33,239 bases of DNA from an archaeon (GTDB lineage Archaea; Nanobdellota; Nanobdellia; Pacearchaeales; GW2011-AR1). This document shows, one piece after another, positions 603-32,436 of the stretch (positions are counted from its first letter, which is position 1; the number at the start of each line of letters is the position of its first letter). The DNA lies in contig JBDRNU010000006.1 of NCBI GenBank assembly GCA_043810775.1, positions 1 to 33,239 on the forward strand, read 5' to 3'. The translations under genes were made by a program, and so were the position numbers. Under the pieces are notes generated by a model that saw only the letters and a list, made by a program, of their open reading frames with translations, was not told the origin of the DNA and did not search any database.

Positions 603-1808
603 TTACTCATACCTCAGAGCATCTACGGGATTTATTCTTGAAGCTCTTACAGCTGGAAACACTCCTGAAACTGCACCAGTTATTGTTGCGAAAAGAATGC
701 AGCCTATAAACAATGAAAAAGGAAACGCCGGCTCTAAAAATCCATATCCCAAGCCATCTAAAATTCTTCCCCCAGCGTAACTTGCTGAAAATCCAACCAG
801 CACTCCCACCACACCAGCAATAAATCCTAAAAATGCAGATTCAAATAAAAATATTCCAAGCACATCAGAATTTCTTGCTCCAATGCTTTTTATAATTCCA
901 ATTTCTTTTACTCTTTCCAGCACAGAGGTAATCATAGTATTTGCAGTATTGACTGCAGATACTAGCACAGAAATTAGTGCAATTAGCACTATAAAGCCAA
1001 TAGCAATGTTCAAAGCTGAAGAAAAGCCCTCAATCATATCATCAAAAGACTGGACAAAAAAATCCTCCTTCCCAACATCTAAGTTTCTTTCAGCCCTCAA
1101 CGCCTTTTCAATTCTTTCAACTGCATTATCAATATCATCTACATCAACTCTTGCAATGATATATCCATAAGAAAGATTTTCTTCTGCATAAAACTCTTCC
1201 ATATAATCATTATCCATATACACTTGAGCGTCATCAGGAGCACTTCCAACTTTTTCAAAAAATCCCACTACCTTAACATCCTGCCCATTAATCTCAATAT
1301 TCTGGTTTAGCCTTATTGCTTTTGGAAATATTTTGTCATCAACCATATAATTATATCCTAGAACAACCTCTCTCTTTCCCTGGTTAAATTGCCTGCCCTT
1401 TAAAATATCAATATTTGAAACCTCCATCACTAGTGGACTTTTAGAGTCATAACTAATCAATAAAGTATACAATCTTTTTTCCTGAGCCTTGACTTCAATA
1501 GTTCTAAAATAATTACCAGTTACTTCATAAACTCCTGCGACTCTTTCAATAGCTCTTATGTCATCATCCCCAAAATGAACATTGCTTTCAAACAGTGCAA
1601 AAGTGCCCCCTTTAGCCTGGATTATAAGCTTATCTGCAGAGCTTCCCTGAGTGAGCTCTTCTATGTAAGTGTAAAGCCCGAGGCCAAAACTAATAAATAT
1701 AAAAATTGTTGTAATTCCCAGAAAAATAGATAAGACTGTAAAAAAACTTCTCGCTTTTCTTTGTTTCAAGTTTCTTAGCGAGTATTTTACTGTTTGTTTT
1801 GAGATCAT
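603..1808 (-). CDS. ABC transporter permease, MacB/FtsX (SalY) family
   Basis: N-terminal TM, large extracellular loop, SVLERVKEIGIIKSIGAR motif, C-terminal INPVDALRYE. Confidence 0.93.
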   Translation of the reverse strand: MISKQTVKYSLRNLKQRKARSFFTVLSIFLGITTIFIFISFGLGLYTYIEELTQGSSADKLIIQAKGGTFALFESNVHFGDDDIRAIERVAGVYEVTGNYFRTIEVKAQEKRLYTLLISYDSKSPLVMEVSNIDILKGRQFNQGKREVVLGYNYMVDDKIFPKAIRLNQNIEINGQDVKVVGFFEKVGSAPDDAQVYMDNDYMEEFYAEENLSYGYIIARVDVDDIDNAVERIEKALRAERNLDVGKEDFFVQSFDDMIEGFSSALNIAIGFIVLIALISVLVSAVNTANTMITSVLERVKEIGIIKSIGARNSDVLGIFLFESAFLGFIAGVVGVLVGFSASYAGGRILDGLGYGFLEPAFPFSLFIGCILFATITGAVSGVFPAVRASRINPVDALRYE

Positions 1809-2299
1809 CTTTTGTTTTCTTCCCCAATAAATTTAACTATTTCTTTAAGCACTTCTTCAATAGGTAAATCAGAAGTATCAATAACTCTTCCTCTAACTTG
1901 CTTAATTTGTTTTCTTAATTCCATCAAATTTTCTAAATCTTCAATAACATCTTGAGAAGACCCCCTATTAGCTAGTCGTTTCCCCCTTTCTTTTTCATTA
2001 ACATCTAATAAACAAAAAGTAATTTTTTCTAGTTTTTTAAATTCAACCATATTTTTAATTTCTTTTGGAAAACATAATCCAATAATGCAAGTTTGAATAT
2101 CTTTTTTCTGATTTTCAATTGCCTTTTTCAGCCAATACAAAGTGGTATTTAATCTCCATTGAATAGTTGGATTTAAAGGAACACCTAATTCATCAAAATC
2201 ATGAGTATCTATTTTAGGAAATGCTTTTTTAATTTTTTCCAATACACTACTTTTACCAACACCCTCTGCACCTATAATAAAATAATTTCCTATTTTCAT
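1805..2299 (-). CDS. Small P-loop NTPase, nucleotide-kinase-like
   Basis: Walker A GAEGVGKS and lid-like R--RL--RG; start placed at ATG 2299, which overlaps the upstream stop (ATGA). Confidence 0.75.
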   Translation of the reverse strand: MKIGNYFIIGAEGVGKSSVLEKIKKAFPKIDTHDFDELGVPLNPTIQWRLNTTLYWLKKAIENQKKDIQTCIIGLCFPKEIKNMVEFKKLEKITFCLLDVNEKERGKRLANRGSSQDVIEDLENLMELRKQIKQVRGRVIDTSDLPIEEVLKEIVKFIGEENKR

Positions 2300-2847
2300 T
2301 TTAAATAACCCCAATGAGTCCATTCTGGAAAATATGGTTTGAATCCAGCTTTTTTCATAACTTTTTTCAAGAGTCTTCTATTGTCTCTTATTTTCTTTTC
2401 TCGCTTTGTGAGGCTTTTTTTATTTTCATAATAATTTAAAGAATCTCTTTCATCGAATTTCTCTCCCCCCATGTCTAGTTCTTTCCCTTTTTCATCAATT
2501 ATTGTTAAATCAACTGCTCCACCGTGTCTGTGGGTATTCATTGGGGTTTTCTGTTTTAAAACTTGGTATCCTCCTGTGAATTTTATGAGCATTTTTTTCC
2601 AATTTTCTGCATCTCTATTTTTGAAGTCTTTTGCGCATATGTCTATAATTCTCTTTTGGTCAGCAATCGATCTTTTTGCATCTAAGATTTTAAAATTATA
2701 TTTCTTTGGCAAAGATTCTTTAGATTTTACTAAGGCTTTTGCTACTGATTCTCTTGCAAACATATTTTTTGCTTTTGTATAATTCCTCCTCTTTCTATTA
2801 TCTAAAATAAATCCATATTTTTTTAGATTCACTAATTTTATTTTCAT
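2296..2847 (-). CDS. D-Ala-D-Ala dipeptidase-like metallopeptidase (VanX/DdpX, M15D family)
   Basis: D-AKRS, THRHGGAVDLTI, LDMG--FD, NRRLL---M---GF and EWTHW match the VanX layout (SxHxxGxAxD, EWWH). Confidence 0.85.
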   Translation of the reverse strand: MKIKLVNLKKYGFILDNRKRRNYTKAKNMFARESVAKALVKSKESLPKKYNFKILDAKRSIADQKRIIDICAKDFKNRDAENWKKMLIKFTGGYQVLKQKTPMNTHRHGGAVDLTIIDEKGKELDMGGEKFDERDSLNYYENKKSLTKREKKIRDNRRLLKKVMKKAGFKPYFPEWTHWGYLK

Positions 2848-4055
2848 CCTCGCAGAGCCTCCACTGGATTTTCTCTAGCTGCATTCATTGCAGGAACAAT
2901 TCCTGCAATTGCTCCGATTAAAAAGCTTCCAATTAAGGTAAATAATATCAGTAAAAAATTAATTTCAGGAGTTGATGTGCTTCCGACAAAGCTGTTAATT
3001 CCAAGAACTCCAAAATAGCCAATTATCAAACCAAAGATAATTCCTAAGATTCCCCCAATCAAGCCTAAAAATCCTGACTCAATCAGGAACATCATAAAAA
3101 TCTGGCTGTTTCTGGCTCCAATTGACTTCATTATTCCAATTTCCTTTTTTCTTTCTACTACAGAAGTAGCCATTGTATTGACTATTCCAATTGCTCCCAC
3201 AAAAATAGAAATTGAAGCTATTAGTATTATGAAAATCTGAATTGCATTTAAAACACTATTTACCTGATTTAATAATGCATCAGGCGTAGAAACTACAAAG
3301 TTTTCTTCCCCTTTTTTTACATCCCTCCTCTCTCTAAGTAATTTCTCAATATCTTCCTTAGCCTTCTCCATTAAGTCAGGACTCTTGACTTTTACTCCTA
3401 TGATATCTACTGTATCTCCTAAATCAACTAATTTCTCAAGGTCAGTATCATACATTAAGATAGCATTATCAAGTATAAAGCTTCCCTGTCTTTCTAAAAC
3501 TCCTATAACTATGAAAGATTTGTTTTCTATTATAAATGTTCTTCCAATTCCAAGTTCCTTATCAAAGCCATTTTTATCTTCATTTTCTTTATTGCTTCCA
3601 ATAACTACTTTTCCCAAGTCACCAGGCTGCAATAATCTTCCCCTTTCAGCTTTTAATCCCATCACTTCATACATCTCCTCTTCACTTCCAACATCCATGC
3701 TCAATATATAACCAAATTCCAGCTGGTTATTGTATTCTTGCTTTAAAAATTCCAAATTTCTCGGAGAGACAAATTCAACTGTAGATAACCTTCCAATTGC
3801 CTCTGCATCAGCTTTAGTTAGGGGATTAACAACAGTAGAGCCTGGAGATCCATAAGCAAGCCCTCCTGCCTGAACAGTTATAGCTTGTGTTGTGTCTGCT
3901 CCAAACTGCGCATTAACAGCTGCTTTTAGCCCATTACCCAGTGTAATTAAAGCAATTACAGCCATAATTCCAATAAAAACTCCAAGAAGAGTCAGCCAGC
4001 TTCTAAGACCTCTTCTTTTTAAATTTTTAAATGACATAGAAAAATAATGAACCAT
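2844..4055 (-). CDS. ABC transporter permease, MacB/FtsX (SalY) family
   Basis: LRSWLTLLGVFIG, VERKKEIGIMKSIGAR, C-terminal NPVEALRG. Confidence 0.93.
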   Translation of the reverse strand: MVHYFSMSFKNLKRRGLRSWLTLLGVFIGIMAVIALITLGNGLKAAVNAQFGADTTQAITVQAGGLAYGSPGSTVVNPLTKADAEAIGRLSTVEFVSPRNLEFLKQEYNNQLEFGYILSMDVGSEEEMYEVMGLKAERGRLLQPGDLGKVVIGSNKENEDKNGFDKELGIGRTFIIENKSFIVIGVLERQGSFILDNAILMYDTDLEKLVDLGDTVDIIGVKVKSPDLMEKAKEDIEKLLRERRDVKKGEENFVVSTPDALLNQVNSVLNAIQIFIILIASISIFVGAIGIVNTMATSVVERKKEIGIMKSIGARNSQIFMMFLIESGFLGLIGGILGIIFGLIIGYFGVLGINSFVGSTSTPEINFLLILFTLIGSFLIGAIAGIVPAMNAARENPVEALRG

Positions 4056-4752: not shown

Positions 4753-4793
4753 AGCTTAAAAAGAAGTTTTAATTATTTAAAGTTATCACTATT

Positions 4794-5411
4794 CTATAAT
4801 GTAGCTGACTTAAGCTTCCAGATTCCATGGTCTAAAGTAGTTGCTTCAAGCCCAAGTTTTTTTGCACTATCTTCAACAATTTTTACCACCTCTTCATCTG
4901 AAACTTTCTTTCCCAAAACCTTTTCTACTGCTCTATGTAAATGCACATCTGGTTTTACAGTTGAAACTCCCAATAGCATGCGAATATACTGTGTTGTTTT
5001 AAATCCAATTCCTTTTACGGGAATTTTGCCAGAATTTTCAGCCCAGTGCTTCATAGCTTTAATATCCGAGCCAAATCTATTTTGTTGCCTGTATCTGATA
5101 AAAAATTCAGTAAGCTTTCTTAAAAGTTCTGCTCTTTGAGTGTGTTTATAATTCCATAGTTTTATGAAATAATTTTGTTTTTTTGCAACTAATTCATGCA
5201 GATCTTTTAGTTTATCAGTGTTCTTCAAGTCTACTCTGAGTTTTTCTATTCTTGGCTTTGCAAAAGAATCATACTGTCTATTAATTGATAGTACAGCATC
5301 AATTAAAATTAAGTTAGGATTATCATATCCAAAATTTTCAGGATTCACAGTCAAGTCTAGCTCCTGCTCTTTTATCCAATCTAAAAATAAATCCACATCT
5401 TCTTTAGTCAT
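4794..5411 (-). CDS. Hypothetical protein with helix-hairpin-helix (HhH-GPD glycosylase-like) signature
   Basis: VKGIGFKT HhH motif followed by KPDVHL and LDHGIW. Confidence 0.6.
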   Translation of the reverse strand: MTKEDVDLFLDWIKEQELDLTVNPENFGYDNPNLILIDAVLSINRQYDSFAKPRIEKLRVDLKNTDKLKDLHELVAKKQNYFIKLWNYKHTQRAELLRKLTEFFIRYRQQNRFGSDIKAMKHWAENSGKIPVKGIGFKTTQYIRMLLGVSTVKPDVHLHRAVEKVLGKKVSDEEVVKIVEDSAKKLGLEATTLDHGIWKLKSATL

Positions 5412-15348: not shown

Positions 15349-15446
15349 TGCGGGAAGAAGGATTCGAACCTTCGCAGGCACTAAGCCATATGGTTTCTAT
15401 CTTTATGACCTTAGCCATACCCGTTTGACCGCTCCGGCATTCCCGC
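15349..15446 (-). tRNA. tRNA-Leu, anticodon AAG, 14-nt intron at 37/38 (15395-15408)
   Basis: GCGGGAA/TTCCCGC acceptor stem, A73, long variable arm, TTCGAAT T-loop, anticodon stem TATGG/CCATA enclosing CTAAGG-TCATAAAGATAGAA-A; spliced length 84 nt equals the tRNA-Leu(CAA) in this window. Confidence 0.88.
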
Positions 15447-20650: not shown

Positions 20651-20956
20651 TTAATTAAAAATTGAATCTTCAAATAGCTCAATATCTAAGCCCTCTTGCC
20701 TTAATCTTTCTAAATCAATCACCTCACTGCAAATAAAATACCAGTTGCCTCCAACACTCCATATCTGCTCTCGTATTTTGCTTCTTTCTTCAGGATTTCC
20801 ATTATCAACTTTTTCTGTAATTAAGTTAACAGCACTTCTATAACTTTGAAAATCTTCGACGCTGTTAACTACATATTTTGGATGTGGGCTTATAATTTCT
20901 CTAAATTGCTCTTCATCGCTTCTTGGGTCAGCTATATAACTTTCCATTTTATTCAT
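20651..20956 (-). CDS. Hypothetical protein
   Basis: 101-aa acidic ORF overlapping or abutting the permease stop. Confidence 0.6.
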   Translation of the reverse strand: MNKMESYIADPRSDEEQFREIISPHPKYVVNSVEDFQSYRSAVNLITEKVDNGNPEERSKIREQIWSVGGNWYFICSEVIDLERLRQEGLDIELFEDSIFN

Positions 20957-22172
20957 ACCTCAGCGCATCAACTGGCCTTAATTTACTTGCCTGCAATGCT
21001 GGCAGAAATCCAGAAGCACTTCCAATCACAAAAGCAAAAGCCAGGCTTCCTAAAACTAGCCATAAAGGATAGCTTACTTGAAGTAAGTTAGTGCCCAGCT
21101 GATTTATTGCAATATACTCAATTATCTGCCCTATTACTATCCCAAGAATAACCCCTATAATCCCTCCAATTAATCCCAAATATCCAGACTCAATTACAAA
21201 TATTTTCAAAATATCAGAATTTCTTGCTCCTACAGCCTTCATTGTGCCTATTTCCTTTGTCCTCTCAATAACACTGGTGTACATTGTGTTCATAATCCCT
21301 ATTGCTCCCACAACCAAGCTGATAGTGGCAATTCCTACTAAAAATCCAGTAATAATATTTAATATATCTCCAAAACTTCTCAAAATTTCTTCAGGAGTTA
21401 ATACTGAAAAATCTTTTGTTTTCTCAGTCAACCCCCTGTCTTTAATTAGTTTTTTTTCCACCTTTTCAGATATATCTTTAACATCTTCCCCAGGCTGAAT
21501 CTGCACAATAATCTCATCAACCCTGTCTCCAGCTTCTGGAAAAATTTCCTTAAAGCCCTCTAAAGGAATATAAATATTTCTGTCATCTTCAGAGTTTCCC
21601 ATGCTTTCCAAAATTCCAACAACCTTAAACTCTTTATTTTGAATCACTAGCTTATCTCCAGCTCCTACTGGCTTTGAAAAAAAATCTCCATACTTATAAT
21701 CATATCCTATCATAATATTATTTTTATCTCCCCCCCGTATTAGTCTTCCCTCTTCTGCTTTTATTGACATTGCTTCATAAATTGATTCATACACACTCAC
21801 CTTATCCATTGGTATTCCTAAAATCATTCTAAATCTTTGTTCATCGCCAAACTCAATTTTCCCATTTCCAATTGTTACATAAGAAACAGCTTTTACACCG
21901 CTGACTCTTTCTACACTATCCACATCCCTGATAGTTAGTTCAGCAGCTCCCCCGCTTCCTGGAGGTCCAAACTGCCCTGCAGCCATTATGAAAAATTTAT
22001 CACTTCCCAACTGCCTGAACTGTTCCTTTACAGCATTTTCAAGCCCAACCGACAAGCTTACCAGAACAAATATAATTGCAACTGACATTAAAATTCCAAC
22101 TATAGTTAGCCAGCTTCTTAGTCTTCTTCTCCTTGTATTCTTCAAAGCTAGTGTAAAATAATCTTTTATCAT
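20949..22172 (-). CDS. ABC transporter permease, MacB/FtsX (SalY) family
   Basis: LRSWLTIVGI, ERTKEIGTMKAVGAR, LRPVDALRYE. Confidence 0.93.
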   Translation of the reverse strand: MIKDYFTLALKNTRRRRLRSWLTIVGILMSVAIIFVLVSLSVGLENAVKEQFRQLGSDKFFIMAAGQFGPPGSGGAAELTIRDVDSVERVSGVKAVSYVTIGNGKIEFGDEQRFRMILGIPMDKVSVYESIYEAMSIKAEEGRLIRGGDKNNIMIGYDYKYGDFFSKPVGAGDKLVIQNKEFKVVGILESMGNSEDDRNIYIPLEGFKEIFPEAGDRVDEIIVQIQPGEDVKDISEKVEKKLIKDRGLTEKTKDFSVLTPEEILRSFGDILNIITGFLVGIATISLVVGAIGIMNTMYTSVIERTKEIGTMKAVGARNSDILKIFVIESGYLGLIGGIIGVILGIVIGQIIEYIAINQLGTNLLQVSYPLWLVLGSLAFAFVIGSASGFLPALQASKLRPVDALRYE

Positions 22173-22678
22173 TTTCTGGAATTATCCGGATAATAAGTCA
22201 TTTTTTTAAGTTTATCAAGATCATTAAAATCTAATTCAGTAAAACAAGAATCAATATTGTTTGCTTTAACATATTCTGCAAGGTCTTTTATTACATTAGC
22301 CATTGATCTAAGTGTATCTCTTTCATAATCTTTTTTTATTGAATGTGAATGAAGGCGCACTACTGTTTTATATCTTCTTATTCTTAAATAATGATTATAT
22401 ATTTCATCAGGCATATTCAAAAGTTCTTTCATTACTTCAGGTTCGCCAGGATTTTCATTTTTTTCAATTTGAATGGTTATATTCCCTTCATGCCAAACTA
22501 AATCATGATTTTCTCCATGTATATGAGGTTCATATTTGCCTGTTTTTTCTAAATTTTCTATTAATCTTTTATAATGAATTTCCATATATATCTCATAATT
22601 GCTCCATAAATTGTATTTTTCTCTTAAGTCTTCATCAGGGCAGTTTTCAAGAGCTTCTAAAAATTCTTCTAAATTCAT
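22169..22678 (-). CDS. Hypothetical protein inserted between the two permeases
   Basis: ATG 22678 lies just after the permease stop; its own stop overlaps the next ATG (ATGA). Confidence 0.65.
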   Translation of the reverse strand: MNLEEFLEALENCPDEDLREKYNLWSNYEIYMEIHYKRLIENLEKTGKYEPHIHGENHDLVWHEGNITIQIEKNENPGEPEVMKELLNMPDEIYNHYLRIRRYKTVVRLHSHSIKKDYERDTLRSMANVIKDLAEYVKANNIDSCFTELDFNDLDKLKKMTYYPDNSRK

Positions 22679-22679
22679 C

Positions 22680-23897
22680 TCATCCTCGCAGCGCATCAAC
22701 TGGCCTTAGTTTACTTGCTTGTAAAGCTGGAAGTAATCCAGAAAGTATTCCAACTAAAAATGAAAAAACCACGGAGCCAATTACCAGTGGCCAGGAAATT
22801 TCAAAGTCGAATATATTATTTCCAAAAAAAGCATTTGCCCCACTTGATGCACTGTAAGCCATTCCCAGCCCCAGAATAACCCCTATAATCCCTCCAATTA
22901 ATCCCAGCAATCCAGACTCAATCAAGAAAACAAAAAGAATATCAGAATTCCTAGCTCCTACAGCCTTCATTGTGCCTATTTCCTTTGTCCTTTCAAGAAC
23001 ACCAGTGTACATTGTATTGGCAATTCCTATTCCCCCGACAATCAGAGAAATAACTGCTATCCCAATTACAATTATATTAACTATATTCAAAATAGTATCT
23101 ACTGCCTGTAATCCTTCTACAGGAGTCTGCACTTTAAAGTCTTCTTCACCCACTTTTTCATCCCTATCTCTTCGCATCTCTTTTTTAATATTTTCTGCAA
23201 CCTTTTCAATTTCATCCTGATTTTCTACCTGAATAGCAATTAAATCAATTTCATCATCTATATCAAGCAAGTCCTTCATATCACTTTCAAGTATCACCAT
23301 TGCAGAATTAATAGTAAAAGTAGAGCTTCTTTGCATAATTCCAATAACTTCAAATTCCCTGCCTTGAATCAGGATTTTTGAGCCAACACCAAGCCTTTTT
23401 CCAAAATCTATATTACTTGAAAAATCATCTCCAAGAAGCACTTTTCCTTTATCTTGCTCTCCAAGTTTCTTGCCTTGGGCAGTATCAACATTCATCTCTT
23501 TATAGATAAAATCAATCTTATCCCTGTCTTCTGGCATACTTACTATGTAACTAAATCTTAAATTTTTATTATACTCTACCTTCACAGCTCTCAGTAACCT
23601 GGGTACAATTTGCTTTATTCCAGAAACTTTTTCAATTACATTAACATCATGTTCATTAAGCTTTCTTACAGCCGTGCTTCCTGGAGGTGAGAAGCCAGTA
23701 TCTGCCCCAGTTACTGTTAAAATATCTGTAGATAAAGATTGAAACTGTCCTGTTACCGCTGTTCTCAAGCCTTGCCCTAATGTTATCAGCGAGACTACAG
23801 CAGCAATCCCAATGAATATGCCAATCATAGTAAGCCAGCTTCTTAGTCTCCTTCTTCTCAGGCTTTTTAATGATAATAAGAAGTAGTCAGCTAGCAT
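22680..23897 (-). CDS. ABC transporter permease, MacB/FtsX (SalY) family
   Basis: LRSWLTMIGIFIG, ERTKEIGTMKAVGAR, LRPVDALRG. Confidence 0.93.
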   Translation of the reverse strand: MLADYFLLSLKSLRRRRLRSWLTMIGIFIGIAAVVSLITLGQGLRTAVTGQFQSLSTDILTVTGADTGFSPPGSTAVRKLNEHDVNVIEKVSGIKQIVPRLLRAVKVEYNKNLRFSYIVSMPEDRDKIDFIYKEMNVDTAQGKKLGEQDKGKVLLGDDFSSNIDFGKRLGVGSKILIQGREFEVIGIMQRSSTFTINSAMVILESDMKDLLDIDDEIDLIAIQVENQDEIEKVAENIKKEMRRDRDEKVGEEDFKVQTPVEGLQAVDTILNIVNIIVIGIAVISLIVGGIGIANTMYTGVLERTKEIGTMKAVGARNSDILFVFLIESGLLGLIGGIIGVILGLGMAYSASSGANAFFGNNIFDFEISWPLVIGSVVFSFLVGILSGLLPALQASKLRPVDALRG

Positions 23898-26490: not shown

Positions 26491-27435
26491 TTAATCATAT
26501 TCTTCTAATAGTATGCTATTCCTAGCTCTCCTTAATTTTAATAAAGCATTGTTTTGTATTTGCCTTGTTCTTTCTCTTGTAACTCCAATTACCTCTCCAA
26601 CTGCTTCTAAGCTATATGACTTTCCTTCAAAACCAAATCTCATCCGAATAATTATCTCCTCTCTTTCATCCAAAATATCTTTTAAGAATCTTCCAACTTT
26701 TTCAATCCTAAAATTATAATCTGCAATTTCATCTGCCCCCACCACTCTCTTGTCTTCAACCAAATCTCCTAAAGTTCCCCCATCTTCTGGGCTTAAATCA
26801 GAATCAAGTGAGCTGGTAACTCTTGCCATTTTTTCTAACTTTTCAACTTTTTCATAATCTAAACCAGTTTCTTCTGCAATTTCCTCCACTGTAGGCGCTC
26901 TCCCGCAATTTTTAAAAAATCTTGATTTAAAAGCATCTACTTTTTTTGTTAATTCGTATGCATGAACTGGAATTCTTATTTCAGCACCCTGATTAGCAAT
27001 ATATCTTGTTATTGATTGTTTAATCCAGTTACTAGCGTGAGTTGAAAACTTGAATCCTCTTTTATAATCAAACTTATCTACAGCTTTCATCAGCCCAATA
27101 CTCCCTTCATCTACAAGATCTAGTAAAGGAATTCCGTGATTTGCATATTTATTAGCTATGCTTACAACTAATCTCAGGTTAGATTTAATAAAAATATTTC
27201 TTGCCTCTTCCTTCCCACTAATTTTTGCCCCATAACTTAAATGAGCAACTCTTTTTTCTCCTTCTAAAATTTGGGCAAGAGCCACTTCATCTTCTTTTTT
27301 TAATAAAGGAGTTCTTCCTATATTTCTAAGGTAAGCTTTTACTCCATCTTCAACATAAATATCTCTATCTTTCTTAGTCCCTTTTTCATAAGCCTTATCT
27401 TCATCTTCTAGCAATTCTGTTTCCCTTAATCCCAT
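26491..27435 (-). CDS. Bacterial-type sigma-70 factor (RpoD/RpoS-like, regions 1.2, 2, 3 and 4)
   Basis: DGVKAYLRNIGRTPLL (1.2); NLRLVVSIANKY, DL-DEG-IGLMKAVDKFDYKRGFKFST (2); IRIPVH, PTVEEIA (3); SLEAVG---GVTRERTRQI (4.2). Confidence 0.92.
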   Translation of the reverse strand: MGLRETELLEDEDKAYEKGTKKDRDIYVEDGVKAYLRNIGRTPLLKKEDEVALAQILEGEKRVAHLSYGAKISGKEEARNIFIKSNLRLVVSIANKYANHGIPLLDLVDEGSIGLMKAVDKFDYKRGFKFSTHASNWIKQSITRYIANQGAEIRIPVHAYELTKKVDAFKSRFFKNCGRAPTVEEIAEETGLDYEKVEKLEKMARVTSSLDSDLSPEDGGTLGDLVEDKRVVGADEIADYNFRIEKVGRFLKDILDEREEIIIRMRFGFEGKSYSLEAVGEVIGVTRERTRQIQNNALLKLRRARNSILLEEYD

Positions 27436-30449: not shown

Positions 30450-30968
30450 ATGTTGGCAAGAATAAAAAATCAAACCAGAAGCCAGAGAATAAAAAGAAAA
30501 GCTAGAAGAAATCTTTCTAGCAAGTTTTCAAGAGAAAAAGATAATTATGTAGTTGATACTTCAGCGATTATCCACAGATTTCTGCCAGGACTTATAAAAA
30601 AAGGGCTAAGCGGAAGAATAATTATTCCCAATGCAGTTATGGCTGAGCTAGAAAGCCAGGCCAATAAGGGATTTGAATGGGGGTTTATCGGTCTAGATGA
30701 AGTTGTAAATCTTCATAATCTAAAAGAAAAATATAAAATAACTATATTTTTTGAAGGAATACGCCCTCAGGAAAACCATATAAAATATGCAAAATCCGGC
30801 GAGATAGATGCTTTAATCAGGGAAATTGCCCGCGAGAATAATGCAACTCTAATAACTTCTGACCTAGTTCAGGCAAAATCAGCTCAGGCTTATAATATTC
30901 CTGTAATTTTTCTTCGCCCTAAACTTGAAAAGCCAAAGAAAAGAAGATTCTGGCCATTTGGAAAATGA
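30450..30968 (+). CDS. PIN-domain protein resembling the N-terminal domain of the archaeal PINA ATPase
   Basis: VVDTSAII, ELESQANKG, GEIDALIR, LITSD-VQA. Confidence 0.85.
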   Translation: MLARIKNQTRSQRIKRKARRNLSSKFSREKDNYVVDTSAIIHRFLPGLIKKGLSGRIIIPNAVMAELESQANKGFEWGFIGLDEVVNLHNLKEKYKITIFFEGIRPQENHIKYAKSGEIDALIREIARENNATLITSDLVQAKSAQAYNIPVIFLRPKLEKPKKRRFWPFGK

Positions 30969-31206
30969 TTAAAAAGAAAACTAAAGTTATTTTTGAAGAT
31001 GGAAATAAAATTAAAGAAGATGATTTAATTGGAGGAATGCCTCTTTCTAAAGGTGAAATTGTCCATATTCATAAAGGTAGCAAGATTATAGATTATAAGG
31101 TAGCAAGATTATAGATTATAAGGTAGTTGACAAGATTATAGACTTTTACTTAGAGGGCAATGATCAAATAGTTAATATCACTTATGTTTTAAGAAAGTTA
31201 AAATAA
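30965..31206 (+). pseudogene. Small gene frameshifted by a 23-bp tandem duplication
   Basis: ATGA-coupled ORF stops at 31114; deleting one repeat unit gives a 72-aa ORF ending at TAA 31206. Confidence 0.65.
31074..31126. repeat. Tandem repeat, 23-bp unit AAGGTAGCAAGATTATAGATTAT, 2.3 copies
   Basis: Exact copies at 31074-31096 and 31097-31119. Confidence 0.9.
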
Positions 31207-31210
31207 TAAT

Positions 31211-31238
31211 GCGCCCGTAGCTCAGCTTGGATAGAGCA
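31211..31238 (+). tRNA. 5' fragment (acceptor strand and D-arm) of an interrupted tRNA, Arg-like
   Basis: GCGCCCG-TA-GCTC-AGCTTGGATA-GAGC-A; pairs with CGGGCGC at 32429-32435. Confidence 0.8.
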
Positions 31239-31270
31239 AAATTTAAATACTTTTTAATGTTAAAATTTAG

Positions 31271-32284
31271 ATGAGGGTTTTAATTTCTAAAGATTCAAAA
31301 TTAGAATTATTCAATTTCCTTAAAGAGAAGAACAATGTTTTTACAAAAAAAGAGCTTTCTAAAAAATTAAAAATATCTTCAAGCACTCTGGATAAGTGGT
31401 TTTATAATGATTATAGGTATATTCCTTTAAATATTGTTCCTGAAGAACTTAAATTAAAAATATTAGATAAAAAGTCAGATAATTGGGGAAAAATTAAAGG
31501 TGGTAAGAAAACTTATCAAATATTAATGAAAAAATATGGTATAAATGAAATCAAAAAAAGACAATCAAAAGGTGGCAAAAATAGTTTGGCAATAAGAAAT
31601 CAAAAATTAAGAGAAAATCTTAAAATTGATATTAATAATCCTTTATTTTTAGAATTTTACGGCGCTTTGTTAGGTGATGGGTGGTTGAGTTCATTATCAT
31701 ATAATTACAAATCAAAAAAAAATTTATGGTGGGTGGGAATAAGTGGTCATTCTAAGCTAGATAAAGAATATTTAATGTTTATTAAAAAAATTGCTGAAAA
31801 ATTATTTAATAGAAAAATCATCATAAAGTATAAAAAAAATTCCCAAGGAATGGAGATACTTTTTTCCCATAAACACTTAATTCTTTTTTTTAATAAAGAA
31901 TTAGGATTTCCAGTAGGCAAGAAATTTAATTTAAAAATTAACAAAAAAATTCCCAAGGAGTGGGATAGGATAAAATATGTAATAAGGGGAATATTCGATA
32001 CAGATGGATGCTTATATTTTGATAAAACTCCAGTAGGAAGACCTTATCCTTGTTTATCTATTCAGATGAAAGCTCCAGTTTTAATAAAGCAATTATATTA
32101 TCTTCTTACTAATAATAATTTTAAAGTAACTTATAAAATTTGTAAGAATAGTAAGGAAGGGCAAAGTAGAATAACCTTAAAAGGAAGTAAACAATTAAAT
32201 AAGTGGATGAACGAGATAGGGTCAAGTAACTCAAAACATTTTTTAAAGTATAAGAATTGGTTAAATCAAGTCCCCGTAGCGTAA
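31271..32284 (+). CDS. LAGLIDADG homing endonuclease with N-terminal HTH
   Basis: Two motifs FYGALLGDG and IRGIFDTDG; KELSKKLKISSSTLDKW HTH; very K/N-rich. Confidence 0.88.
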   Translation: MRVLISKDSKLELFNFLKEKNNVFTKKELSKKLKISSSTLDKWFYNDYRYIPLNIVPEELKLKILDKKSDNWGKIKGGKKTYQILMKKYGINEIKKRQSKGGKNSLAIRNQKLRENLKIDINNPLFLEFYGALLGDGWLSSLSYNYKSKKNLWWVGISGHSKLDKEYLMFIKKIAEKLFNRKIIIKYKKNSQGMEILFSHKHLILFFNKELGFPVGKKFNLKINKKIPKEWDRIKYVIRGIFDTDGCLYFDKTPVGRPYPCLSIQMKAPVLIKQLYYLLTNNNFKVTYKICKNSKEGQSRITLKGSKQLNKWMNEIGSSNSKHFLKYKNWLNQVPVA

Positions 32285-32343
32285 CTGGATAGCGCGACAG
32301 CTTCCTAAGCTGTAGGTTGCAGGTTCAAATCCTGCCGGGGACG
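32270..32343 (+). tRNA. tRNA-Arg(CCT)
   Basis: GTCCCCG/CGGGGAC, D-loop GGATA, ACAGC-TTCCTAA-GCTGT, GCAGG-TTCAAAT-CCTGC, G73. Confidence 0.95.
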
Positions 32344-32345
32344 TT

Positions 32346-32436
32346 TTCCTAACCTTGGTGTCGTAGGTTCAAATACTTAAACTCGTGAGAGTTTGAGTCC
32401 CAGAAAATCTTTGATTTTTTGAGCCTATCGGGCGCA
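32346..32436 (+). tRNA. 3' fragment of the interrupted tRNA, with a 49-nt insertion at the T-loop (32375-32423)
   Basis: TTCCTAA-CCTTG-GTGTC-GTAGG-TTCAAAT-[insert]-CCTAT-CGGGCGC-A. Confidence 0.8.

Follow-up and report, generated by a model that had tools for sequence, protein, structure and literature searches.

Homing endonucleases are thought to require an intron or an intein in order to be tolerated in essential genes. In fungal mitochondria, mobile endonuclease open reading frames (ORFs) known as mORFs bring along a foreign copy of the C-terminal region of atp6, atp9, cox2 or nad3, and the displaced native region persists as a remnant; Allomyces macrogynus atp6 and Glomus atp6, atp9, cox2 and nad3 are examples (PMC3630166). 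The phage T4 enzyme SegB is described as a free-standing endonuclease in a tRNA gene cluster that is capable of intron-less homing (PMC2330249). For archaea, 39 group I introns have been reported, all of them in rRNA genes (PMC6125680). Here, we analyze a 33,239-nt contig (JBDRNU010000006.1, called the window when the whole stretch is meant) from the genome of a tiny, Woesearchaeota-type groundwater archaeon belonging to the DPANN group (~1 Mb, 33% G+C, 80% complete). Near its end, the window probably carries a free-standing, intron-less homing-endonuclease cassette of ~1.1 kb, made up of a promoter, a LAGLIDADG gene and a cargo tRNA-Arg(CCT), which sits inside the resident tRNA-Arg(CCT) gene. 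The original prediction, drawn from the letters of this DNA, had proposed a selfish module of endonuclease and replacement tRNA, and that proposal is now supported by intact alleles, by a filled/empty pair of sites and by many endonuclease-plus-tRNA units in relatives.

The resident, or outer, gene is present as two pieces (Table 1). Its 5′ piece comprises the acceptor 5′ strand, positions 8-9, the full D-arm and position 26, and a block of 1,107 nt (31239-32345) separates it from the 3′ piece. Within this block lie the promoter, the endonuclease ORF and a complete tRNA-Arg(CCT), which we refer to as the inner or cargo tRNA. The two outer acceptor strands pair at 7/7 positions (31211-31217 with the 3′ strand CGGGCGC), and positions 27-31 (CAAGG, the 5′ strand of the anticodon stem) are missing, so that the outer gene of the window cannot make a tRNA. 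The inner tRNA differs from the outer gene in its D-arm (inner GCGT AACTGGATA GCGC), its anticodon stem and its variable loop (inner AGGTT). Thus, a divergent substitute stands next to leftover native parts, as in mORFs: inner tRNA and outer remnant are 75% identical across the 32 nt that they share, and the remnants match the alleles of relatives. The inner gene is the highest-scoring Rfam tRNA of the window and, among the 37 tRNA genes that ARAGORN called in the 80%-complete genome with introns allowed, the sole tRNA-Arg(CCT). In several loci, TATA-like A/T-rich stretches lie 20-35 nt upstream of the inner tRNA, with inconsistent placement. All elements of the locus were found where the original prediction had put them; the full complementarity of the acceptor strands and the absence of CAAGG can both be seen in the sequence, and ORF calling, Pfam, ARAGORN and Rfam agree on a two-motif LAGLIDADG ORF and an intact tRNA-Arg(CCT) between the outer pieces. 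A 49-nt insert in the outer T-loop is a feature additional to that description.

Judged by comparison with other genomes, the outer gene is the native resident tRNA-Arg(CCT), which relatives without the endonuclease carry intact. A pattern search gave tRNA-Arg(CCT)-type matches in 86 of the 121 genomes of the family, and 30 loci were retrieved. Uninterrupted alleles, which the original prediction had suggested looking for in relatives, are indeed present and have the anticodon CCT. The 5′ piece of the window is identical at 28/28 positions to the start of the intact tRNA-Arg(CCT) of genome G093 (locus L065), TTCCTAACCTTGGTGTCG of the 3′ piece is identical to the intact gene of endonuclease-less G080 (L042), and GTAGGTTCAAATCCTATCGGGCGC runs uninterrupted, without the insert, through the intact G002 gene (L053). 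These identities, and the recurrence of the split layout in independent assemblies, go beyond chance. The same locus occurs in endonuclease-less form in L040-L043, where the syntenic upstream PIN-domain gene is followed by an intact tRNA-Arg(CCT), and L042 forms a pair with the filled site L101. Two of these four intact alleles, those of G065 and G080, read ...GATAGAGCA CAAGG TTCCTAA CCTTG G(G/T)GTC...

The filled site in question, L101/L102, is one structure that was assembled separately in two metagenomes. Its cassette lies between a 5′ piece ending in ...GAGCA and a 3′ piece that begins CAAGG TTCCTAA CCTTG, with no part of the tRNA missing. Its flanks are 91.5% identical over 1,480 nt upstream and 93.1% identical over 1,036 nt downstream to those of endonuclease-less L042. 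Together, the L101/L102 junctions and the alignment with G080 place the insertion exactly between tRNA positions 26 and 27 (A26/C27). Filled and empty site differ in both acceptor strands (GCGCCCG/CGGGCGC in L101 vs GCCCGAG/CTCGGGC in G080), in ~18 nt upstream and in ~45 nt downstream; these differences would fit co-conversion of the whole small gene along with the cassette, short of proof.

A survey of relatives for endonuclease-plus-tRNA units between tRNA pieces, one of the checks that the original prediction had suggested, found many. Orthologues of the endonuclease (47-61% identity) are encoded in G049, G059, G031, G026, G012, G033, G018 (a fragment), G103, G088 and G078 and in two Woesearchaeota genomes, and in 13/13 genome-derived orthologous loci, read by eye, a tRNA 5′ piece directly precedes the promoter and the ORF ends at a tRNA-Arg(CCT). 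The family is a large one, as a metagenome scan added at least 464 relatives among 598 candidate stretches. From these, 80 loci were kept, of which 51 qualified as orthologues under the criteria of at least 40% identity and a match extending to query residue 289 or further. ARAGORN places a tRNA-Arg(CCT) at the end of the ORF in 39 of these 51, and a TAGCTCAG-like motif with at most two mismatches precedes the TATA box in 35 (exactly in 21), at a distance of 12-23 nt, or 12-18 nt in all but one. The chance of such a motif occurring is estimated at ~10% per locus, with uniform base composition assumed.

Across loci, retention is far commoner for the 5′ piece than for the 3′ piece, which shows progressive loss. 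It is complete, with CAAGG kept, in L101/L102; it starts at the anticodon loop in the window, L056 and L006/L115 (all without positions 27-31), inside that loop in L110 and at the variable loop in L094; it is reduced to T-arm and acceptor in L123, to the stretch from within the T-loop onward in L092 and to TCCTAA in L049/L091; and it is gone from L005, L007, L008, L063 and L073. Where both pieces remain, the acceptors pair 7/7 in seven loci with six sequences (GCGCCCG in the window and L101, GCATCCG in L006/L115, GCTCCTG in L056, GCCTTTG in L094, GCTCCCG in L110 and GCCCGAG in L123), 6/7 in L099 and 5/7 in L089/L004. The acceptors of split loci are of kinds found in intact native genes. We read this pattern as different native alleles having been invaded repeatedly, or co-converted, and then eroded by deletions. 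The deletions start at the inner junction. Rfam searches of 18 loci, at E values up to 10, returned whole tRNAs and no partial matches to the remnants, which were therefore identified by eye and by motif. Local alignment of the flanks to the inner tRNA detects remnants poorly, owing to the differences between inner and outer gene. Chimeric inner tRNAs, which were expected in loci without a 3′ piece, were not clearly seen.

Might the outer tRNA still function, either around a giant intron of 1.1 kb or as a split tRNA processed by the archaeal splicing endonuclease, possibly with a piece encoded elsewhere? The original prediction had offered multi-step or trans-splicing as its alternative, and the perfect acceptor pairing of seven loci with covarying sequences, the retention of every tRNA part in L101/L102 and a genome rich in non-canonical introns with relaxed splice motifs all speak in its favor. 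We used a purpose-written scanner for the archaeal helix-bulge-helix-bulge-helix motif (bulge-helix-bulge, BHB), with eight introns of this genome and 500 random position pairs as controls. Full motifs were recovered in 3/8 control introns and relaxed motifs in the remainder. The best scores at the cassette junctions were 10 for the window, 7 for L101 and 10 for L003, none above the random control, in which 16.8% of pairs score at least 10 and 84% at least 7. The junctions also show no BHB-forming complementarity of the kind seen in split or tri-split tRNA genes. Exon joining would give a complete tRNA only in L101/L102, and not in the window, L056 or L006, where positions 27-31 are absent; other loci have lost more. 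Further, the outer anticodon loop reads CTTGCAA vs CTTATGA in two species of one genus, the endonuclease promoter is downstream of the 5′ piece, so that the two pieces are not in its transcript, and tRNA-Arg(CCT) is already supplied by the inner gene. With positions 27-31 lost and no BHB at the junctions, the outer gene is a remnant and not a spliced tRNA. Multi-step or trans-splicing is not supported, as no junction BHB rises above control and different loci lack different essential parts, and we regard a working outer tRNA as very unlikely. A group I intron was rejected, as the window has no Rfam match to one at gathering score and the insert, once ORF and tRNA are accounted for, is too small to hold a ribozyme.

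In favor of a working outer tRNA, the T-loop insert does form a BHB. The insert folds with a minimum free energy of -29.7 kcal/mol (z -3.67), and its BHB-like motif (H 4/4, h 8, h′ 4) was matched by 0/500 random controls. However, cutting at the predicted sites (after 32376 and after 32419) would leave the T-loop with 6 extra nt instead of restoring its 7-nt length. L101/L102 have an insert of ~200 nt in the same position, again built of similar hairpin modules, and this lineage's native gene may therefore have contained an intron in the T-loop prior to invasion. Separately, a 16-nt core of the insert, AAAATCTTTGATTTTT, recurs in the hairpin core of a repeat family of this genome (G000), whose members are ~140 nt long, are 90-99% identical and have several copies at contig ends. 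Introns of 12-68 nt are common in the tRNA genes of the genome; one 98-nt tRNA of the window (Rfam, 46.8 bits) is missed by default ARAGORN and is called with a 14-nt intron when introns are allowed.

The endonuclease consists of an N-terminal helical domain of ~120 aa and a double-motif nuclease core. It matches Pfam LAGLIDADG_3 at 24.4 bits (cut-off 22.5). Single-sequence searches of the PDB and NCBIfam with the 337-aa protein gave no match; an alignment profile searched against the PDB found PI-PfuI at 5.7e-7. The AlphaFold2 model has a mean pLDDT of 89.8, and its best Foldseek matches are all LAGLIDADG enzymes (I-LtrWI, I-Tsp061I, I-OnuI, bI3 maturase, PI-PfuI and I-DmoI; E ~1e-9, probability 1.00), with a TM to target of 0.75 for the archaeal intron enzymes I-Tsp061I and I-DmoI. 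Model, Foldseek and Pfam together point to two core domains of the alpha-beta-beta-alpha-beta-beta-alpha type. The catalytic Asp residues of both motifs (D136 in LLGDGW and D245 in GIFDTDG) are invariant in 19/19 aligned homologues, and dN/dS is 0.21, 0.11, 0.13 and 0.13 in four orthologue pairs, indicating purifying selection on the gene. By these features, the enzyme looks catalytically competent and active. In the window and in L005-L008, L063 and L073, the ORF extends 15-40 nt into the cargo tRNA (32270-32284 in the window) and stops at a TAA or TAG of the tRNA, in its D-loop or anticodon loop, and the C-terminal residues (e.g. ALVAQLDSA) are thus translated tRNA sequence. Excision of the cargo tRNA by RNase P would deprive the mRNA of its stop codon. 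As a side observation, the ORF contains an exact 17-nt direct repeat, AAAAAAATTCCCAAGGA, whose two copies are in different frames; the protein alignment has no indel there, and the presence within the repeat of CAAGG, the strand missing from the outer gene, is probably a coincidence.

The promoter was profiled on 48 distinct orthologous upstream regions aligned by their ATG codons. From -29 to -22 the profile is T/T/T/A/A/A/T/A (TTTAAATA), each letter occurring in 73-92% of loci, behind a purine-rich stretch resembling a B recognition element (BRE), with A at -33/-32 in 92% and G at -35 in 79%. In the window, the TATA box ends 21 nt ahead of the ATG at 31271, and the sequence of this 21-nt spacer is not conserved. 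Because a BRE/TATA consensus recurs at a fixed 21 nt before the ATG across the 48 loci, the endonuclease has, in silico, expression signals of its own outside any intron or intein, downstream of the 5′ tRNA piece. The usual geometry of archaeal promoters places the transcription start at the ATG, which predicts a leaderless mRNA.

The endonuclease family is patchily distributed: 18 of 61 related genomes gave matches. A tree of the proteins resolves the clade linked to tRNA-Arg(CCT) as monophyletic (100/100), and the copies of family f9 nest within those of f1 (99/96); this tree is in conflict with taxonomy. The cargo type of tRNA is associated with the enzyme. The variable loop AGGTT is found in 5/6 endonuclease-linked vs 2/23 endonuclease-less tRNA-Arg(CCT) genes, a count that covers the 29 of 30 retrieved loci with an ARAGORN tRNA-Arg(CCT) and is drawn from related genomes, which are not independent samples. 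Beyond this isotype, a same-strand tRNA lies at the ORF end in 24/30 homologous loci, with Arg-CCT, Arg-TCT, Arg-TCG, Val, Thr, His, Ile, Gln, Ala, Leu and Pro all represented; the other six comprise two with a tRNA on the opposite strand, three in which no tRNA was called and one broken ORF. Paralogous cassettes are also situated between pieces of a tRNA of the same kind (L010, Thr; L022, Gln; L140; L167; L164/L011), and a further one, L143, combines Arg-CCT with a short-form enzyme and acceptor pairing of 6/7. The genome under study itself encodes a second LAGLIDADG paralogue (L002, 299 aa, with 36% identity across the core). Immediately downstream of it lies a tRNA-Val(TAC) gene whose D-arm region is interrupted by a 36-nt intron.

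Collectively, these data suggest a model in which the enzyme would cut intact native-type tRNA-Arg(CCT) genes near the junction of D-stem and anticodon stem, and the break would be repaired from a cassette-bearing copy, with the two remnants and nearby flanks serving as homology arms. The cargo tRNA, with its differing D-arm and anticodon stem, would escape cutting and keep the host viable, and no splicing would be required. The 5′ remnant that abuts the BRE and TATA box has probably taken on a role as an upstream element of the promoter or as an operator. As a rival origin, the tRNA pieces might be what is left of the att sites of an integrase-type element; integrative elements usually target tRNA genes and are the classical origin of tRNA fragments in the genomes of archaea. 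The 1,107-nt insert, however, encodes no integrase, its contents being the endonuclease ORF and the tRNA, and the flanking pieces are complementary halves of one gene and not direct repeats; an origin of this kind is highly improbable.

Several observations weigh against the homing model. The inner tRNAs of L008, L050 and L073 are of the native D-arm type, and cargo-like tRNAs without an endonuclease are found in L075 and L069, which may represent the source lineage or an end state after loss of the enzyme; with both kinds present, a simple division of tRNA types into sensitive and resistant fails in places. In G001, of the same genus, a DNA search gave short tRNA-like matches only, with a tRNA-Thr as the best locus, a pattern search with the 5′ piece matched only a tRNA-Ile, and no tRNA-Arg(CCT) allele was found in this 85%-complete assembly. 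In four public sequencing runs, only short contigs of low depth matched parts of the locus and none bridged either junction; two apparent joints among them proved to be ordinary tRNA genes of other organisms, with other letters between. A contig from an RNA library is identical to 31450-31670, which may be DNA carry-over and is no proof of transcription. To these points we add the degree to which the outer pieces are conserved, which we take up below.

The evidence for the junctions of the window is the assembly, together with the same architecture recurring elsewhere. One could suppose that the contig was misjoined at similar tRNA sequences. The genome is metagenome-assembled, the feature lies ~800 nt from the contig end and no public contig spans the junctions. 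Nevertheless, the same junction logic is seen in the independent assemblies G026, G103, G049, G059, L094, L110 and L123, and in L101/L102 from two metagenomes. Mis-assembly is thus unlikely, and we give an artefact of this kind practically no weight.

If the outer pieces were neutral relics, they should decay along with their surroundings. Between G049 and G059, of the same genus, the 5′ piece and TATA box are 93% identical and the 3′ piece 85%, with a 32-nt T-arm stretch unchanged; over the same distance, the inner tRNA is 100% identical, the leader 73% and the flanks 51-65%, and the endonuclease has a dS of 0.54. In three further pairs, the 5′ piece is somewhat better conserved than leader/flank, at 93 vs 81/76%, 67 vs 48/48% and 53 vs 33/54%. 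Neither the G049 nor the G059 genome contains a second copy of the conserved outer T-arm, and gene conversion was rejected on that ground as the cause of the conservation in this pair. On these alignments, the outer pieces are kept better than a neutral relic should be. Our best guess is that DNA derived from the D-arm and overlapping the BRE has been co-opted as a promoter or operator, possibly bound through the enzyme's half-site recognition. The conservation in G049 and G059 would also suit the working outer tRNA considered above.

The same conservation can be accommodated if the protein is a domesticated host factor, a regulator or processing helper tied to tRNA genes that is not, or no longer, mobile, with the tRNA pieces as its cis-elements and vertical inheritance with losses behind its distribution. 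The dN/dS of 0.11-0.21 would be expected of such a factor, as would a 5′ piece that stands directly before the promoter in nearly all loci and exceeds leader and flanks in conservation in close pairs. The N-terminal domain gives a weak helix-turn-helix signal (Pfam HTH_26, E 0.0087, below cut-off), and bifunctional LAGLIDADG proteins are known, the bI3 maturase being among the fold matches. However, invariance of both catalytic Asp residues in all 19 homologues would be needless in a mere binding protein. The filled/empty pair with its 91-93% identical flanks, the patchy presence in 18 of 61 genomes with f9 copies nested in f1, and six perfectly paired outer acceptor stems that mirror the diversity of native alleles also argue against it, and we consider domestication unlikely as the explanation. 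We therefore retain the homing cassette as the probable reading of this locus.

Table 1. Features of the tRNA-Arg(CCT) locus, and other features mentioned in the text. Positions are those of the window unless a contig handle is given.
Feature	Position	Strand	Content or basis
5′ remnant of outer native tRNA-Arg(CCT)	31211-31238	+	GCGCCCG TA GCTC AGCTTGGATA GAGC A; sequence reading
Endonuclease promoter	31233-31249	+	Purine-rich BRE-like stretch overlapping the D-stem end, then TATA box TTTAAATA (31242-31249)
LAGLIDADG endonuclease ORF	31271-32284	+	337 aa; stop codon and last 15 nt inside the inner tRNA gene
Inner (cargo) tRNA-Arg(CCT), complete	32270-32343	+	ARAGORN; Rfam RF00005, 69.3 bits
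3′ remnant of outer tRNA, whole	32346-32436	+	T-loop interrupted by 49-nt insert
3′ remnant, first part	32346-32374	+	Anticodon loop TTCCTAA, 3′ anticodon-stem strand CCTTG, variable loop GTGTC, T-stem 5′ strand GTAGG, T-loop TTCAAAT
Two-hairpin 49-nt insert in outer T-loop	32375-32423	+	Between positions 60/61; RNA fold
3′ remnant, second part	32424-32436	+	T-stem 3′ strand CCTAT, acceptor 3′ strand CGGGCGC, discriminator A
17-nt direct repeat within endonuclease ORF	31838-31854 and 31948-31964		Two exact copies, 110 nt apart
Tandem repeat	31074-31153		23-nt unit CAAGATTATAGATTATAAGGTAG, 2.5-3 copies
49-aa ORF	30965-31114		End overlapped by the tandem repeat
98-nt tRNA	15349-15446	-	Rfam; ARAGORN with introns allowed
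Sigma-70-type ORF	26491-27435	-	314 aa; Pfam
MacB/FtsX-type permease genes	603-4055 and 20949-23897 (-)		Four genes, ~400 aa each, in two pairs
Second LAGLIDADG paralogue (L002)	C7:52144-53217	-	299 aa
Copies of the ~140-nt repeat family	C8:1-147; C8:~3019-3165; both C22 ends (inverted); C5:~4756-4862; C10:34146-34237		

Other features of the window were noted in passing. The tandem repeat lies between the PIN gene and the 5′ tRNA piece. The sigma-70-type ORF matches Pfam Sigma70_r1_2, r2, r3 and r4 (E 2e-8 to 5e-17). A gene of this bacterial type is unexpected in a DPANN genome, and the rest of the contig has an archaeal look, with intron-bearing tRNAs and BRE/TATA promoters. The four permease genes are paralogous.

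If the homing model holds, the cost of invading an essential gene is met here by a complete spare gene. Such cassettes would offer a concrete and testable path to broken-up tRNA genes in DPANN, would act as a source of tRNA genes replaced by horizontal transfer, and would provide natural LAGLIDADG enzymes whose targets, spanning many tRNA isotypes, can be read from the flanking remnants. A broader proposal, that a widespread class of tRNA-gene-invading elements fragments tRNA genes in DPANN, with every invasion leaving a 5′ half next to the promoter and a 3′ half that is free, the 5′ half as an operator by which the endonuclease senses or regulates its own promoter, and expressed halves as raw material for split tRNAs of the Nanoarchaeum type, is one that we put forward tentatively and hold to be rather doubtful at present. 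In literature searched for LAGLIDADG enzymes with tRNAs in archaea or DPANN, with supplements outside the scope, we found no endonuclease-plus-tRNA cassette inside archaeal tRNA genes.

How, then, does the locus compare with known systems? I-DmoI, I-Tsp061I and PI-PfuI share its nuclease core fold and motifs, but they reside in BHB introns of rRNA genes or in inteins, where splicing restores the product that is here restored by a carried gene, and the present protein has an extra N-terminal domain of ~120 aa. Among known split tRNAs, one split position is 25/26, near the 26/27 site described here. The split and tri-split tRNAs of Nanoarchaeum, itself a DPANN archaeon, and Caldivirga resemble our locus in that 5′ and 3′ parts of a tRNA lie apart in an archaeal genome (PMC10714607). 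In those systems, however, complementary leaders form a BHB and yield a complete tRNA, whereas the present locus has no such motif and lacks part of the tRNA. T4 SegB and other free-standing Seg and Mob enzymes are likewise described as lying among tRNA genes and spreading with flanking genes, without splicing, by cutting relatives that lack the endonuclease. Unlike our LAGLIDADG enzyme, which sits with a spare tRNA inside a cellular tRNA gene that it destroys, SegB is a GIY-YIG phage enzyme placed between tRNA genes. The closest likeness is to the mORFs, which share with this locus an intron-less endonuclease ORF (LAGLIDADG or GIY-YIG) within a host gene, a divergent substitute brought along, a native remnant downstream and uninterrupted relatives. 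In contrast to mORFs, the gene invaded here is a chromosomal tRNA gene of an archaeon, the cargo is a whole gene, with remnants at both the 5′ and 3′ sides as a result, and the ORF, which overlaps the cargo tRNA, is preceded by an archaeal promoter of its own. The cassette would thus extend to archaeal chromosomes and to RNA genes a strategy that, in the literature we found, has been described for the protein genes of fungal mitochondria.

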